Positions 38,391 to 61,384 of a stretch of DNA of 64,000 nt are shown in pieces. The notes below the pieces were generated by a model. That model ran no database searches and was not told the DNA's origin. It saw nothing but the letters and a program-made list of their open reading frames with translations. Source of the stretch: Herpetosiphon sp. NSE202 (GTDB lineage Bacteria; Chloroflexota; Chloroflexia; Chloroflexales; Herpetosiphonaceae); NCBI RefSeq assembly GCF_042688385.1, contig NZ_JBHUPY010000007.1, positions 2,110 through 66,109 of the forward strand, written 5' to 3'. Positions within the stretch are counted from its first letter, which is position 1, and every line of letters begins with the position of its first letter. Both the position numbers and the translations under genes were made by a program.

Positions 38391-39032
38391 ATGCCACACA
38401 ATCAACCAACTGTCGAATTACGCCCAGCCAACGCCAACGATTTGGCGATTTTGGGCGAATTGTTGCTCGATTTATATGATGCAGAATTGCCCGATTCGTT
38501 GCGTGGAGCCGATAGCCAACGCCAAGCCTTGTTGCGCTACACCTTGCATGCCAACAATTTTGCTGGCGTGCGCGGGCGCTATGTCGTGCGCAATCAAGCA
38601 GGCGAGATTGTCGGCATGGCAGGCATTCAATTCCCCAACGAGCCAGCCCCTGATCGAGTGCCACGCGGCACATTGAACATGGCGGTGCAATTGATTGGCC
38701 TGAAGCATACGCTGCATCTATTGAGCACCGTCGCGGCCTCGATGCTAATGCCACCACCAAAATTCAACCCCGACTATGCCTATATTCATGGGATTGTGGT
38801 GCGTGCCCAGCAGCGCGGCCAAGGCTATGGTGCGGCGATTATGCAGGCAGTTGAGCAGCAATTAGCGGCGCGCAAGGTTGCTGGCGCACAACTACAAGTG
38901 ATCGTTGATAACCAGCAAGCGGCCAAATTATACGAGCGCTTGGGCTATCGCACGGTCTATCGCTCACCAAAATGGCTCGATCGCGTGACGATTCCCAATA
39001 TTCTGATGCAAAAACCATTGACAACCGGCTAG
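38391..39032 (+). CDS. GNAT-family N-acetyltransferase
   Basis: GGAG sits 6 nt before the ATG at 38391. IHGIVVRAQQRGQGYGAAIM...LYERLGY. Confidence 0.75.
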   Translation: MPHNQPTVELRPANANDLAILGELLLDLYDAELPDSLRGADSQRQALLRYTLHANNFAGVRGRYVVRNQAGEIVGMAGIQFPNEPAPDRVPRGTLNMAVQLIGLKHTLHLLSTVAASMLMPPPKFNPDYAYIHGIVVRAQQRGQGYGAAIMQAVEQQLAARKVAGAQLQVIVDNQQAAKLYERLGYRTVYRSPKWLDRVTIPNILMQKPLTTG

Positions 39033-39062
39033 GCTAACCACATATGTTGAGGGAGGGAAATC

Positions 39063-39653
39063 ATGTACAAAATTTCAGCGGCGTTACCCGTTAAGCGCCA
39101 ACTACCACTATCAACCATAGGACTATGGATAGCGGCCCATCTGCCTGGCCTCTTTCTCATTGCTTGGCTCGCTCGGCTTGATGATGCAGCAATTCCTGAT
39201 ATTATGTTTATTCCATTAATGCTGATTGTATCTACTATCTTGATCCAAACTGGACAAGCAATGGTAATCAGCAAATTGACCAAAAAACGCCTATTTATTG
39301 CTTGGTGGCCGATTACGATCGTTTTATCGGTCGTGTTCCAACGCATGTTTGGCGCATCACTTTATTTTTTATGGCCATTTGCGACATTTCAAGCAACATT
39401 ATTTATAGCAATTGCCCAATTTATCATCGCAAAATACTATGGTTATACAATGCGTTTCTGGGTTGTGCTAAACCTTGGCGCATATGTTATGCATAAAGTG
39501 CTGCTCCATATTTTCGATTACTACAAGCATCTAGCAATATCAAACTATGCAGTTATGATTATCACAATTACAACCATGTTTATAACTAGCATAGGCTTAT
39601 TTTTTATCCAGCCAAACCACGAATCAAAATCAAGACTTAAAGGTTTGCTTTAA
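39063..39653 (+). CDS. Polytopic membrane protein, paralog A; the local sequence is AT-rich
   Basis: GAGGGAGGG RBS. Five or six TM helices. Motifs QTGQAMVISKLTKKR and C-terminal GLFFIQPNHES are shared with the downstream paralog. Confidence 0.6.
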   Translation: MYKISAALPVKRQLPLSTIGLWIAAHLPGLFLIAWLARLDDAAIPDIMFIPLMLIVSTILIQTGQAMVISKLTKKRLFIAWWPITIVLSVVFQRMFGASLYFLWPFATFQATLFIAIAQFIIAKYYGYTMRFWVVLNLGAYVMHKVLLHIFDYYKHLAISNYAVMIITITTMFITSIGLFFIQPNHESKSRLKGLL

Positions 39654-39718
39654 ACATACAACCAAAACAGAGTATATCCGCAAAACACAATCTAAATAAT
39701 TAAGCAAAGAGGTCGAGA

Positions 39719-40378
39719 ATGTATGAAGTTGCCCATGCCCGCTCACAACGACTGCGAATTCCAGTCGTCACATGGCTGTATTGGATTGGCGTGCATATTC
39801 CAGCGCTGCTTTTGAGTGTGTATAGTATGCTGTTTTTTGTGCAAGATCAGCCTGATGGCGGTGAAATTGTATATTTTGGATTATTTTTGCTTATGGAATT
39901 TGTTTGTATTGGAAGTATCAGCATTGGACAAGCTTGGATTTTGAAAAGAACAATTAATCCACAATTATTTTCATCATGGATTTCGAAAACAATGTTTACG
40001 GCCATGGGCTTTGGCATATTAAGTTTTATGCTGCAGCTTAATTCTATAATCGATAGAATGTATCAAACCCCTCGGACTATAGCTACAGTGCAACAGTTAT
40101 TACCTTCTCGATTAATCTTAATGACCCTGCTTGGTGGATTGATTGGTTTTGTTCAAGCACGAATTCTCCATAGCTATGGCTATCGTATGTGGCATTGGAT
40201 AGCAGTACAAGGGCTGAGTTATCTTTGTACAACGAGCATTATTGGCTGGTTGATGACCGATGTACGCTACATCTACTTAGCAGGAACAATTCCGATTGTT
40301 ATGGCTGGCGCTGGGATAATTAATAGTTTGGGGCTTTTTCTGATTCAGCCAATTCATAATCATGGGCAAAAACTATAA
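39719..40378 (+). CDS. Polytopic membrane protein, paralog B
   Basis: SIGQAWILKRT and C-terminal GLFLIQPIHNHGQ match paralog A. Six TM helices. Confidence 0.6.
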   Translation: MYEVAHARSQRLRIPVVTWLYWIGVHIPALLLSVYSMLFFVQDQPDGGEIVYFGLFLLMEFVCIGSISIGQAWILKRTINPQLFSSWISKTMFTAMGFGILSFMLQLNSIIDRMYQTPRTIATVQQLLPSRLILMTLLGGLIGFVQARILHSYGYRMWHWIAVQGLSYLCTTSIIGWLMTDVRYIYLAGTIPIVMAGAGIINSLGLFLIQPIHNHGQKL

Positions 40379-40405
40379 CCTAGCTGTAATAGTTCATTAC
40401 ACAGC

Positions 40406-58462: not shown

Positions 58463-59546
58463 TCACGTTGATAAAGTCTTTGGCGATGTCCATGTGCTCA
58501 AAGATCTCAACATTGATATTCCCGACCAAGAATTTTTGGTGCTGGTTGGCCCTTCAGGCTGTGGTAAATCAACCGCGTTGCGCTGTTTGGCTGGCCTCGA
58601 AGAAATCACCGGCGGCCAAATTATGATCGGGGATCGCGTGGTCAACAATGTTGCGCCCAAAGATCGCGATATTGCCATGGTGTTCCAAAGCTATGCCTTG
58701 TATCCGCACATGACCGTGTTTGATAACATGGCTTTTGGCTTGAAACTGCGCAAAGTGCCCAAGCCCGAAATTAAACGCCGCGTCGAAGAAGCTGCCGAAA
58801 TGATGGCGATCGGCCACTTGCTTGATCGCAAGCCACGCCAACTTTCGGGTGGTCAACGCCAGCGGGTTGCCTTGGGCCGCGCAATCGTCCGCGACCCAGC
58901 CGTCTTCTTGATGGACGAACCACTCTCAAACTTGGATGCCAAGTTGCGGGTGCAAACGCGGGCTGAAATTAGCAAGCTGCACCAACGGCTCAAAACCACC
59001 TTCATCTATGTGACCCACGACCAAACCGAAGCTATGACCATGGGTTCGCGGATTGCGGTTATGCGTGATGGATTGTTGCAACAACTCGATAGCCCGCAAA
59101 CCTTGTACGATCATCCAGTGAACAAATTTGTGGCAGGCTTCATTGGTTCGCCTTCGATGAACTTCATCAAAGGTACCTTGACCAAAGGCGATGGCCGCTT
59201 GTTCTTCGATGGCGGCAGCTTCGCGGTGCCAATTCCCAACAGCCGACGCGCTCATATCGAATCGCATGTTGGCAAAGAAGTTGAGCTTGGTGTGCGCCCA
59301 GAAGACGTGCACGATGCAGCGCTCTTGCCACCAGGCATTAATGGCGATGCAGTCGTCGAAACCACCGTCGATGTGACCGAACCAATGGGTAGCGAAATCT
59401 ACGCTTACCTGCAAAGCGGCCAACACTCGATCATCGGGCGCTTCGACCCCCGAACGTCAGCCCGCCCAGGCCAGCCAATTCGGGCAGTCTACGATATGGA
59501 AAAAATGCATATCTTCGATATCGCCACCGAAAAAGCTTTAGTCTAA
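58443..59546 (+). CDS. Sugar ABC-transporter ATP-binding protein (MalK/MsmK-like) with a C-terminal TOBE domain
   Basis: GPSGCGKST (Walker A), [14 protein letters not shown] (signature), [11 protein letters not shown] (Walker B). No permease or binding-protein genes are adjacent. Confidence 0.9.
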
Positions 59547-59552
59547 ACATAG

Positions 59553-59600
59553 GCTTCGGCGAAGCCTAAACATCAGCGCAGCATGGTTCATGCTGCGCTG
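59553..59600 (+). terminator. Rho-independent terminator
   Basis: atcagcgcagcatg-gtt-catgctgcgctgat is a perfect 14-bp stem followed by ttgcgttt. Confidence 0.6.
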
Positions 59601-59695
59601 ATTTGCGTTTAAATTCACCCTTGACAATCACTATAATTCCTTTAAACTCATGCTTTAAACCTAACATATAAAAACATCCCACAAGGAGGTTGTTT

Positions 59696-60865
59696 ATGAA
59701 CAAGCCTATCATACAAATACAGTATGATCAAATGCAGCAGATCGCCAAACGCTTCGATCAACAAATGCAAAAGGTTAATAATATCAATCAAATGCTTCAA
59801 CAGACGGTAGCTAACCTAAGGAATGGTGCTTGGCAAGGTCAAGCAGCCCAAGCATTCTTCAAAGAGTTTGAGACCGAAATTACCCCAACACTTCAACGCT
59901 TGGTTCAGGTTTTTGAGACCCACCAATCAGTAACCATCGAAATTGGTAAACTCTTCAAAACTCACGAAGAGGAAGCCGCACGCTTATTTCAGCATGAACC
60001 CAATGGGGTAATGGCAAGTAAACAACGTGGCAAAGGGGTCTTTGCTAGCCCACCAAACGAAGATCCAGAAGTCGCTGATGTTCATGATCCAAGTCGCGAT
60101 TTCAAAATATTTGGTCACACAATTTTCAAATATGAATATGCTCCTCAATACAAAACATTTAAAGGTCAAATTAGTCCTGACGGGATTAGTTCCAGCGATG
60201 TAAAACAGGGAAGTCTTGGCGATTGTTACTTTATGGCTGCTCTAGCCTCGGTTGCCCAGCAAAATCCTAATTTGATTAAAAATGCGATTGCTGATAATGG
60301 TGATGGTACCTATACTGTCACCCTGTATGAAAAGGGGAAACCAGTACAAATAACCGTTGATTCAGATTTCCCAGTGCGCCAAGATTCAAAGGGCAACCCA
60401 ACCATGATTCCAGCATATGCCAATACTGGCAGTACCAATGATGAATTATGGCCAATGATTCTAGAAAAGGCCTATGCGCAACATACCAAAAATAGCTATG
60501 AAAAAATTGAGGGTGGATGGCCAGGCGATGCGGTTGAATTATTAACTGGTAAGGCTCCAACTGAAATCAGCACCGCAGCATCAACTCCTGAACAAACCAA
60601 AACCGTCTTACAAGACTTAAATACTCGGATTAGCAACGGTGATAGTGTTACAGTTGCAACCCGCTCTGAAGGTTTGTTTGAAAGTTCATCAGGTTGGCCA
60701 TCAAAGGTCGTCCCTAATCATGCATACTCAATTGAAAAAGTCGATGTTGCCAACGGCATGATTTATCTGCATAATCCATGGGGAACAATGCATAATCCTC
60801 AACCAATGAGCCTTGATGATTTTAATAAATACTATACCTATACTGCGGTAAATCAGCTTAAGTAA
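59696..60865 (+). CDS. WXG100 (ESAT-6-like) N-terminal domain fused to a calpain-type cysteine protease (peptidase C2) domain; putative T7SS-exported polymorphic toxin
   Basis: AAGGAGG at 59683-59689 sits 6 nt before the ATG. The N-terminal 95 aa form a helical hairpin with W-x-G (LRNGAWQGQAAQAF). The C-terminus has QGSLGDCYFMAALAS (calpain Cys motif QGxLGDCW), NHAYSI (His) and HNPWG (Asn, calpain RNPWG). The region is conspicuously AT-rich. Confidence 0.8.
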   Translation: MNKPIIQIQYDQMQQIAKRFDQQMQKVNNINQMLQQTVANLRNGAWQGQAAQAFFKEFETEITPTLQRLVQVFETHQSVTIEIGKLFKTHEEEAARLFQHEPNGVMASKQRGKGVFASPPNEDPEVADVHDPSRDFKIFGHTIFKYEYAPQYKTFKGQISPDGISSSDVKQGSLGDCYFMAALASVAQQNPNLIKNAIADNGDGTYTVTLYEKGKPVQITVDSDFPVRQDSKGNPTMIPAYANTGSTNDELWPMILEKAYAQHTKNSYEKIEGGWPGDAVELLTGKAPTEISTAASTPEQTKTVLQDLNTRISNGDSVTVATRSEGLFESSSGWPSKVVPNHAYSIEKVDVANGMIYLHNPWGTMHNPQPMSLDDFNKYYTYTAVNQLK

Positions 60866-60889
60866 TATTTTAATTGAAGGATAAAAGTT

Positions 60890-61306
60890 ATGCGTTTTAG
60901 GCTATTATTAAGCATTTTTATCATCATAATGAGCGGATGTGGTACTACCCAACAGGAGCAAGCAACCATGACAAGCGAAGCAACGCGTTTTATTCAACAA
61001 ATGACGGTTAGCCAAGGCACACTCTATCGCACCGAAAATCAATTTGGCATTGGTCTAGAGTTTGTTGAAAATGGCGAATATACCGATGAGCAAGGCCAAA
61101 GCCAAAAGGGCGTATTTGCTCGCATTTCGGTCGGTGATGAAACCCAAACCGACCCTACATATCGTGCCGCGAGCATTATTGTGCATGAAGGCAGTATTTT
61201 CGAGGCTGGCGGACGCTACGAGGTGATTGAACTGCATAAAGGTTCATCAAATGGCATGCCTGGCTCGAATAGTAGTTATATGGTTTTTGGCAAATTAGCC
61301 GATTAA
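60890..61306 (+). CDS. Small lipoprotein (138 aa) immediately downstream of the WXG100-calpain gene; candidate immunity/inhibitor protein
   Basis: MRFRLLLSIFIIIMSGCG is a signal peptide plus lipobox. The gene is AT-rich and lies 24 nt after the toxin stop. Confidence 0.55.
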   Translation: MRFRLLLSIFIIIMSGCGTTQQEQATMTSEATRFIQQMTVSQGTLYRTENQFGIGLEFVENGEYTDEQGQSQKGVFARISVGDETQTDPTYRAASIIVHEGSIFEAGGRYEVIELHKGSSNGMPGSNSSYMVFGKLAD

Positions 61307-61384
61307 TTTCAGCCCTATCAACGGTATAATAAAAACTGGTGGATGTCACAATCCATCAGTTTTCATTTTAGTGGAATCAAATCT

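Follow-up and report, generated by a model that had tools for sequence, protein, structure and literature searches.

A WXG100-calpain fusion gene and its lipoprotein partner in Herpetosiphon sp. NSE202: a candidate polymorphic toxin-immunity cassette of the type VII secretion class

Among the characterised toxin-immunity pairs of type VII secretion systems (T7SS) are TelC/TipC of Streptococcus intermedius and EsaD/EsaG of Staphylococcus aureus, and dedicated pairs of a protease and its inhibitor are known from staphopain/staphostatin and from the chagasin-type ICP lipoproteins. The framework of polymorphic toxins, in which T7SS toxins of the WXG100 and LXG classes are accompanied by adjacent immunity genes, was reportedly laid out by Zhang and Aravind in 2012. 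Here, a two-gene locus of Herpetosiphon sp. NSE202, a member of a filamentous, predatory genus of Chloroflexota, is compared with these systems. The locus lies in a 64,000-nucleotide stretch of contig NZ_JBHUPY010000007.1, hereafter the window, and is composed of a gene for a fusion of a WXG100 module with a calpain-type (peptidase C2) protease and of a lipoprotein gene directly downstream. Judged from sequence comparison and structure prediction, the two genes probably form a toxin-immunity cassette of the polymorphic kind that belongs to the WXG100 class of type VII secretion.

The joining of WXG100 and C2 domains was described by Rawlings 2015 (Biol Direct, PMC4631099) in three proteins of Herpetosiphon aurantiacus and in one protein of Segniliparus, together with the proposal that such fusions may be toxins exported by ESX/T7SS. 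In the same paper, Tpr of Porphyromonas gingivalis (MEROPS C2) is given as the only studied bacterial calpain homologue, and the one biochemical report on bacterial calpain homologues is questioned. Calpain goes unmentioned in the accessible part of the text of Zhang et al. 2012, and no paper characterising a calpain-type T7SS or polymorphic toxin was found in the literature. The statement of the initial annotation that such a toxin had not been characterised therefore holds for experiments but not for the fusion itself, which has been known since 2015. The logic of the system is standard for polymorphic toxins as well. What is new here is the swapping of the C-terminus, the linkage to EssC-type ATPase genes, a partner family that tracks the C2 domain, an orphan immunity gene and the signature of hypervariable alleles.

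The fusion protein and its interchangeable C-terminus

The features of the fusion gene are as follows.

59696-60865, plus strand: WXG100-calpain fusion gene, putative T7SS-delivered protease toxin, 389 amino acids (aa), ATG start
59696-59995, plus strand: WXG100 delivery module, residues 1-100 (Pfam, NCBIfam, AF2)
59831-59839, plus strand: W46-Q-G turn motif
59972-60055, plus strand: disordered linker, residues 93-120 (predicted local confidence, pLDDT, <50)
60056-60862, plus strand: calpain-type (peptidase C2) core, residues 121-389 (Pfam, AF2, Foldseek)
60206-60208, plus strand: Gln171 (oxyanion hole)
60224-60226, plus strand: Cys177 (catalytic)
60719-60721, plus strand: His342 (catalytic)
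60773-60775, plus strand: Asn360 (catalytic)

The product is 100% identical to NCBI protein P0001 of Herpetosiphon sp. NSE202, which is annotated there as "WXG100 family type VII secretion target". An N-terminal WXG100 hairpin and a complete calpain C2 signature had both been proposed by the initial annotation, and both were borne out, with corrections of detail: the open reading frame (ORF) encodes 389 aa and not 390, the catalytic cysteine numbered C183 is C177 when the ATG start is used, and the motif positions were right within a few bases, W-Q-G being located at 59831-59839 where about 59837-59848 had been given. Both domains score above the curated cut-offs. Pfam PF06013 (WXG100) matches residues 6-91 with E = 4e-12 and 46.6 bits (cut-off 27.3), and residues 1-100 alone give 51.3 bits (E = 1.4e-13), while NCBIfam TIGR03930 matches with E = 9e-20 and 70.6 bits (curated cut-off 44.85). 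Pfam PF00648 (Peptidase_C2) covers residues 158-365 with E = 7.5e-34 and 117.6 bits (cut-off 23.8). A sequence search of the PDB returned 19 calpain protease cores, the best of which was that of calpain-1 (E = 8e-14), and a weak match of the N-terminus to EsxA.

The predicted structure displays the same arrangement. In the AF2 model, built on 21 family sequences (mean pLDDT 83), helices 10-43 and 49-97 form a hairpin with W46-Q-G48 in the turn; the disordered linker 93-120 follows, and then a compact domain at 121-389 with pLDDT of about 90. The best 39 Foldseek matches in the PDB are all calpain protease cores, with E as low as 2e-13, and the first match other than calpain is staphopain (1pxv) at E = 7e-3. 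In an alignment of the 21 family members, which share 30-75% identity, W46, Q171, C177, H342 and N360 are invariant, and C177, H342, N360 and Q171 align with the catalytic residues of calpain-1. W46 is also invariant among 149 relatives of the N-terminal module, with A90, E91 and A94 nearly so. The last three positions belong to a motif at the junction where helix 2 ends (residues 90-98), (A/H)EEEAAR.F, which is nearly invariant (AEEEAA..F) among the relatives of the module. The linker that follows differs in length among relatives, and the region is gappy in the 21-member alignment. No match of the toxin to the LXG profile PF04740 was obtained at E <= 1, and only one of 133 relatives gave a weak LXG match with Pfam; on these profile comparisons the toxin belongs among WXG100 fusions, not LXG. 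No sequence follows the protease core, the last residue of the protein being 389, and Pfam identified neither the penta-EF-hand nor the C2-like/CBSW accessory domains of calpain in it. Bacterial calpain homologues typically lack these classical accessory domains (PMC4631099).

The tails carried by relatives of the delivery module were compared by an exhaustive phmmer search with residues 1-105 against 1.84 billion representative sequences, in which 1,582 proteins were matched at E <= 1e-3. The best 150 of the 1,582 are nearly all 260-590 aa long and are aligned over their residues 1-100. Together with P0001 they make a set of 151 sequences, of which 138 extend past the module by a tail of 60 aa or more. 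Compared all against all by BLAST, these tails fall into 59 clusters unrelated to one another; 40 clusters have a single member, and the calpain tails form one of the 59. By this comparison the relatives of the module carry at least 59 unrelated C-termini. A Pfam scan of 133 of the sequences put names to a minority of the tails, and most of the named ones are classic toxin domains. The names include Ntox5, Ntox28, Ntox44, CdiA-CT RNase A, NS-type endonucleases, colicin M, two ADP-ribosyltransferase families (ART and ADPrib_exo_Tox), two families of glutamine deamidases, GH19 muramidase/chitinase, lipase and the pre-toxin domain PT-TG. Furthermore, three WXG100 fusions with different tails adjoin one another in the metagenomic cluster L002. 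The C-terminal swapping that the initial annotation had named as a check was thus found, and with it the hallmark of polymorphic toxins, since the C-termini joined to one delivery module are unrelated. With the profile matches of both domains and the invariant catalytic residues, those refuting conditions of the initial annotation that were examined came out in favour of its reading.

C2 proteases also occur without a WXG100 module. These C2-only homologs (P0033, P0058 and P0066-P0088) come from Myxococcota (about 575 aa), Planctomycetota, Actinomycetota and Cyanobacteria, and fusions to LysM among them hint at action on the cell wall.

The partner lipoprotein and the divergence of the cassette

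The second gene of the pair was confirmed at the position first proposed, with a lipobox present.

60890-61306, plus strand: partner lipoprotein gene, 138 aa, candidate immunity protein/inhibitor
60938-60940, plus strand: codon of the lipobox cysteine, M-S-G-C17; the lipobox rule is satisfied

The signal peptide, MRFRLLLSIFIIIM-SG-C17, is a typical lipoprotein signal. The two genes are co-oriented and separated by 24 bases. Ten WXG100-C2 loci were compared, namely the window, L001, L002, L003, L005, L006, L061, L062, L063/L064 and L065, where L063 ends just after the toxin gene and L064 supplies the partner of that locus. In all ten, a hidden Markov model (HMM) of the partner family detected an ORF of this family directly downstream of the fusion gene; the partner of H. 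aurantiacus (L005) is a tandem form of 217 aa (hhalign probability 92%). A lipobox is found in eight of the ten. The identity of the partner to that of the window drops in step with the identity of the toxin, the percentages for toxin/partner being 75/65, 54/40, 53/38, 34/18, 34/12, 31/16 and 30/20. The family is small, with 20 members in a profile search of 5.8 billion proteins, and has no Pfam or NCBIfam match. AF2 predicts an all-beta protein of about eight strands (mean pLDDT 62, core 71-89).

The partner also accompanies a C2 protease that has no WXG100 module. At 8379-11602 of L032, a Nostocaceae metagenome-assembled genome (MAG), an AAA+ ATPase gene, a C2 protease gene (397 aa) and two tandem partner-family lipoprotein genes, both with a lipobox, lie together, and the pair of warhead and antidote thus seems, from this gene order, to be used in a different delivery context. 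L032 was the sole match when the neighbourhoods of C2-only homologs were searched, with the partner HMM only. A resemblance of the N-terminus of the L032 protease to a DUF4157/eCIS-type leader received no support from Pfam and was set aside.

The remaining evidence on the partner comes from a comparison of the site in three species, the window of NSE202, H. llansteffanensis (L001) and H. geysericola (L066), for which the surrounding features are given below.

End at 59546: MalK-like ABC ATPase gene, upstream of the cassette
About 59553-59571: smaller hairpin, preceding the 59572-59602 terminator
59572-59602, plus strand: intrinsic terminator with 14-bp stem and T-rich tail, assigned to the MalK-like ABC ATPase gene before it
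59621-59648, plus strand: promoter-like site, TTGACA-16 nt-TAAACT (consensus match only)
About 59640-61200, no strand: hypervariable AT-rich cassette, from sliding identity against L001 and L066
59683-59689, plus strand: ribosome-binding site AAGGAGG, 6 nt ahead of the toxin ATG
61332-61363, plus strand: terminator-like hairpin of 13 pairs between the lipoprotein and NUDIX genes
About 61386: NUDIX gene start (MPNQAF), a conserved start inferred from L001 and L066

The order of genes is LacI, ABC/MalK, the cassette, NUDIX and glycosyltransferase, and this frame is syntenic across species. The strong upstream terminator of the initial annotation was found as the 14-bp stem at 59572-59602, which is also kept in H. 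geysericola and H. llansteffanensis, and the hairpin at 61332-61363 is predicted to close the two-gene unit. The sequence up to about 59640, with the promoter-like site included, is approximately 100% identical to that of H. geysericola.

H. geysericola carries the lipoprotein gene (76-77% identical) between its ABC and NUDIX genes and no protease gene. The spacer between the ABC and lipoprotein genes is 166 bp, with the terminator and promoter region preserved. This orphan partner is intact, and its dN/dS of 0.24 against the window copy points to purifying selection. H. llansteffanensis has two tandem partner genes at 11194-12061 of L001: the first is intact and divergent, with 65% identity to the partner in the window, and the second, its ortholog (72% identical), has lost the signal peptide and is frameshifted near the 3' end. 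Taken together, the co-divergence with the protease, the pairing in L032 without WXG100 and the orphan of H. geysericola speak for a partner that confers immunity specifically to the C2 warhead, and support its proposed role as immunity protein or inhibitor. A role as cytoplasmic T7SS chaperone was considered and discarded because of the lipoprotein signal and the persistence of the gene without the toxin in H. geysericola.

The cassette diverges far more than its surroundings. The flanking genes of the three species show protein identities of 97-100%, dS of 0.15-0.37 and dN/dS of 0.00-0.04, whereas the protease is 75% identical (dS 0.99, dN/dS 0.17) and the lipoprotein 65-77% identical (dS 0.6-1.2, dN/dS 0.24-0.27). 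The dS of the cassette, 0.6-1.2, is therefore 3-6 times that of the flanks. The divergent block extends from about 59640 to about 61200 and ends inside the lipoprotein gene, the final 35 or so codons of which (61200-61306, …VHEGSIFEAGGRYEVIELHKGSSNGMPGSNSSYMVFGKLAD) are nearly identical in the three species, against 65-77% for the rest; this 3' segment may mark a boundary of recombination or be under constraint. The AT-rich stretch coincides with the divergent block (GC 0.42 vs 0.52), in line with the AT-richer islet seen earlier. Over 59696-61306 the GC content is 0.419, compared with a window mean of 0.518 (sd 0.032), which falls in the lowest 0.9% of segments of equal size, and GC at third codon positions (GC3) is 0.34 in the toxin gene vs 0.54-0.59 in the flanking genes. 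A very recent horizontal insertion was considered for the islet and rejected, as three Herpetosiphon species have this site occupied; for the same reason low GC and high dS agree better with long-lived recombining alleles than with a fresh insertion. The pattern is that expected of old toxin-immunity alleles that recombine and are kept at one fixed place in the chromosome.

The window has one other low-GC patch, at about 38400-40400 (GC about 0.42). Directly after a GNAT acetyltransferase gene, it holds a pair of paralogous multi-pass membrane ORFs (39063-39653 and 39719-40378, plus strand; 196 and 219 aa) without a Pfam match.

The divergence bears on a different use for the protease, namely that it is exported by T7SS to degrade prey for food, the lipoprotein being a general inhibitor for self-protection. 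A digestive or predatory role accords with the predatory life of the genus, with the concentration of C2-only homologs in other predatory or social bacteria (Myxococcota, Archangium), with the LysM cell-wall-binding domains fused to some of them and with the predicted surface anchoring of the partner. Against it, the cassette is hypervariable between near-identical species, protease and partner co-diverge, an orphan partner is kept without the protease, and the same delivery module bears classic interbacterial toxin domains. These four observations indicate antagonism with allele-specific immunity and not a housekeeping digestive enzyme, and the digestive role is considered unlikely.

Secretion context and proposed mode of action

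Genes for FtsK_SpoIIIE (EssC-like) ATPases are present within 10 kb in five of the ten WXG100-C2 loci (L002, L003, L006, L063/L064 and L065), and small WXG100 genes are also near the fusion in these five, which are part of T7SS-like clusters or adjoin them. L006, an Anaerolineae MAG, encodes a complete EssC of 1,373 aa together with two small WXG100 proteins, the C2 fusion and its partner. L065 holds an FHA/Trans_reg_C regulator, two WXG100 genes, an EspC-like gene, the fusion, the partner, a Ser/Thr kinase and an FtsK_SpoIIIE protein of at least 2,979 aa. In L063/L064, a 2,935-aa FtsK_SpoIIIE protein and an FHA protein are encoded directly upstream of the fusion, and L002 and L003 share this layout. 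From these neighbourhoods, the linkage to EssC is carried by relatives from other Chloroflexota and not by Herpetosiphon itself.

The T7SS ATPase of some Chloroflexota is a giant. At 1-7266 of L063 and 7015-15425 of L065 it measures about 2,935 to at least 2,979 aa, approximately twice the normal EssC, and genes for FHA/Trans_reg_C proteins and Ser/Thr kinases are found in the clusters too. In L002 and L003, where the ATPase genes are "split", frameshifts introduced by assembly may have broken up the same giant gene. At 10001-11476 of L003, the fusion gene is frameshifted (302 aa plus a 99-aa ORF with the His and Asn) and the partner gene is truncated, which represents a decaying copy or an assembly error.

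The place of the fusion in such clusters raises the question of whether it is a component of the T7SS, as a MycP-like processing protease or a self-processing substrate with the lipoprotein as accessory factor. Its position between the small WXG100 genes and the kinase and ATPase genes is fixed in the L002, L003 and L065 clusters, as expected for such a component. The pair is, however, stand-alone and far from T7SS genes in Herpetosiphon, L061 and L062, and the C-terminus is interchangeable with toxin domains. Moreover, the partner goes with the C2 domain also where WXG100 is lacking and is kept alone in H. geysericola, and the frameshift of the in-cluster copy in L003 implies that the gene is dispensable there. 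Membership in the secretion apparatus is accordingly given hardly any credence.

A delivered toxin with its own antidote is the explanation preferred here, and the following course of events is proposed. Residues 1-100, folded as an ESAT-6-like hairpin, would mark the protein for export by an EssC-type FtsK/SpoIIIE ATPase machine whose genes lie in another part of the genome. The flexible linker would carry the toxic payload, a compact calpain-type cysteine protease (Cys177, His342, Asn360 and Gln171), which, once released at the cell surface, would cleave proteins of neighbouring bacteria, whether competitors or prey. The lipoprotein, anchored on the outer face of the producer membrane, would bind the protease and so protect the producer and its kin. 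As a lipoprotein cannot act in the cytoplasm of the producer, the protease would be harmless before export or its targets would be extracytoplasmic. Export by T7SS in NSE202, proteolysis, toxicity, direct inhibition by the lipoprotein and extracytoplasmic action are the inferred parts of this scheme.

Several results weigh against the proposal. There is no EssC-like gene in the 64-kb window by tblastn with four EssC-like queries and no T7SS domain in its largest ORFs by Pfam, as the initial annotation had noted of T7SS core genes. Similarly, no T7SS gene lies within 10 kb of the Herpetosiphon WXG100 fusions L001, L005, L067 and L069. After the hairpin no YxxxD/E export motif is present, residues 85-125 being devoid of Tyr; this motif defines actinobacterial T7SSa substrates only, and T7SSb-type substrates do not need it. 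The predicted fold of the partner, which is of moderate confidence, matches no known protease-inhibitor fold, and no informative match was returned. Finally, in L061 and L062 the start of the partner gene is closely preceded by a stop codon, which makes a signal peptide impossible and suits an immunity protein of the cytoplasm more than one of the surface.

As for the machinery, Herpetosiphon genomes carry several WXG100 fusions, and the modules are scattered and stand-alone (window, L001, L005, L067 and L069); NSE202 itself has a second WXG100-C2 paralog, P0128, on another contig. None of the short WXG100 matches is from Herpetosiphon, and the literature on a T7SS core in this genus yielded nothing usable. 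ESX systems have been predicted in several Chloroflexi (PMC4010439; PMC3482391).

Two of the stand-alone modules may be recorded individually. At 10001-11555 of L067, the H. aurantiacus fusion P0291 (ABX06816.1, 339 aa) has a tail without a Pfam match and is followed by a 167-aa ORF, and at 10001-10422 of L069 a partial H. llansteffanensis fusion is located at a contig end.

The L061 and L062 partners, and likewise the short NCBI members P0285-P0287 of the family, which seemingly have no signal peptide, also bear on where the protease acts. They would suit a toxin working in the target cytoplasm, for which the lipoprotein form is secondary or intercepts the toxin before entry, and the characterised cysteine-protease toxin Cpe1 does have its site of action there, its immunity protein being cytoplasmic as well (PMC12136450). 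Set against this are the lipobox in eight of the ten partners and in both L032 copies, which would leave the lipoprotein unable to neutralise the toxin in the producer cytoplasm, and the stretch between hairpin and protease, in which no translocation domain is evident, only a disordered linker of about 28 residues. A cytoplasmic target is rated as very unlikely for the window pair, and the action outside the cytoplasm suggested by the initial annotation is probably not uniform across the family.

Calcium provides one conceivable means of keeping the proposed toxin silent before export. With the definitions of the calpain calcium sites in PMC4631099, the side-chain ligands of site 1, D106 and E185 of calpain-1, are equivalent to D168 and E250, which are invariant in the toxin family, and G101 of calpain-1 corresponds to G163, while the segment of site 2 (calpain-1 residues about 302-333) is deleted in the family. 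The warhead might be gated through site 1 (Asp168, Glu250), inactive in the low calcium of the cytoplasm and active after export by T7SS, although we regard this as a tentative idea, doubtful on balance. If activation did depend on calcium outside the cell, a cytoplasmic antidote would be unnecessary and a surface lipoprotein would, speculatively, be enough for most producers. The signal-less partners of L061 and L062 are not explained by such gating, and cytoplasmic action is possible for part of the family.

Comparison with known systems

To our knowledge, no T7SS toxin with a C2-family protease warhead has been studied, and we know of no contact-dependent weapons in Herpetosiphon. The pair extends the repertoire of T7SS toxins, a field little explored by experiment, to Chloroflexota and to a predatory genus. 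The advance is incremental unless calcium gating or the idea of a surface target proves true; if gating does, this would be the first T7SS protease toxin to attack the cell surface of prey or competitors, and the lipoproteins that block its warhead would be a family of protease inhibitors not described before. For none of the bacterial calpain homologues is the function firmly established, and a compact pair of 389 and 138 residues could reveal what one of them cleaves. It could also show whether the calcium site inherited by eukaryotic calpains has a role in bacteria, and by what means a small beta-protein of a new kind blocks an enzyme of the calpain type.

Like the WXG100 and LXG toxins, the cassette combines a helical delivery module, an interchangeable C-terminal toxin domain and, immediately downstream, a candidate immunity gene, and its family shares with them orphan immunity genes and EssC linkage. 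TelC/TipC is closest in logic, since TelC acts outside the membrane and TipC is surface-exposed. Unlike the LXG toxins, the fusion has a true WXG100 module (PF06013) of about 100 aa and not an LXG module of about 200 aa, its warhead is of the calpain type, and its host is a predator of the Chloroflexota. As in staphopain/staphostatin and the ICP pairs, a small all-beta protein, the presumed blocker, stands beside a protease of the papain fold.

With the bacterial C2 homologues, the toxin shares a Peptidase_C2 core with the Cys-His-Asn triad and without the EF-hand (PEF) and C2-like domains. Gene neighbourhoods, partners, C-terminal swapping and EssC linkage are not covered in Rawlings 2015 (PMC4631099). 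The last comparison is with Cpe1/Cpi1, in which a papain-like (C39-like) interbacterial toxin, delivered by the type VI secretion system (T6SS) or by contact-dependent inhibition (CDI), cleaves GyrB and ParE (PMC12136450). Both systems have a clan CA protease as C-terminal warhead and a small, fast-diverging immunity gene downstream, with co-varying identities. They differ in that the present toxin is of family C2 and not C39-like, whereas Cpe1 has a Gram-negative mode of delivery, cytoplasmic targets and a cytoplasmic immunity protein.

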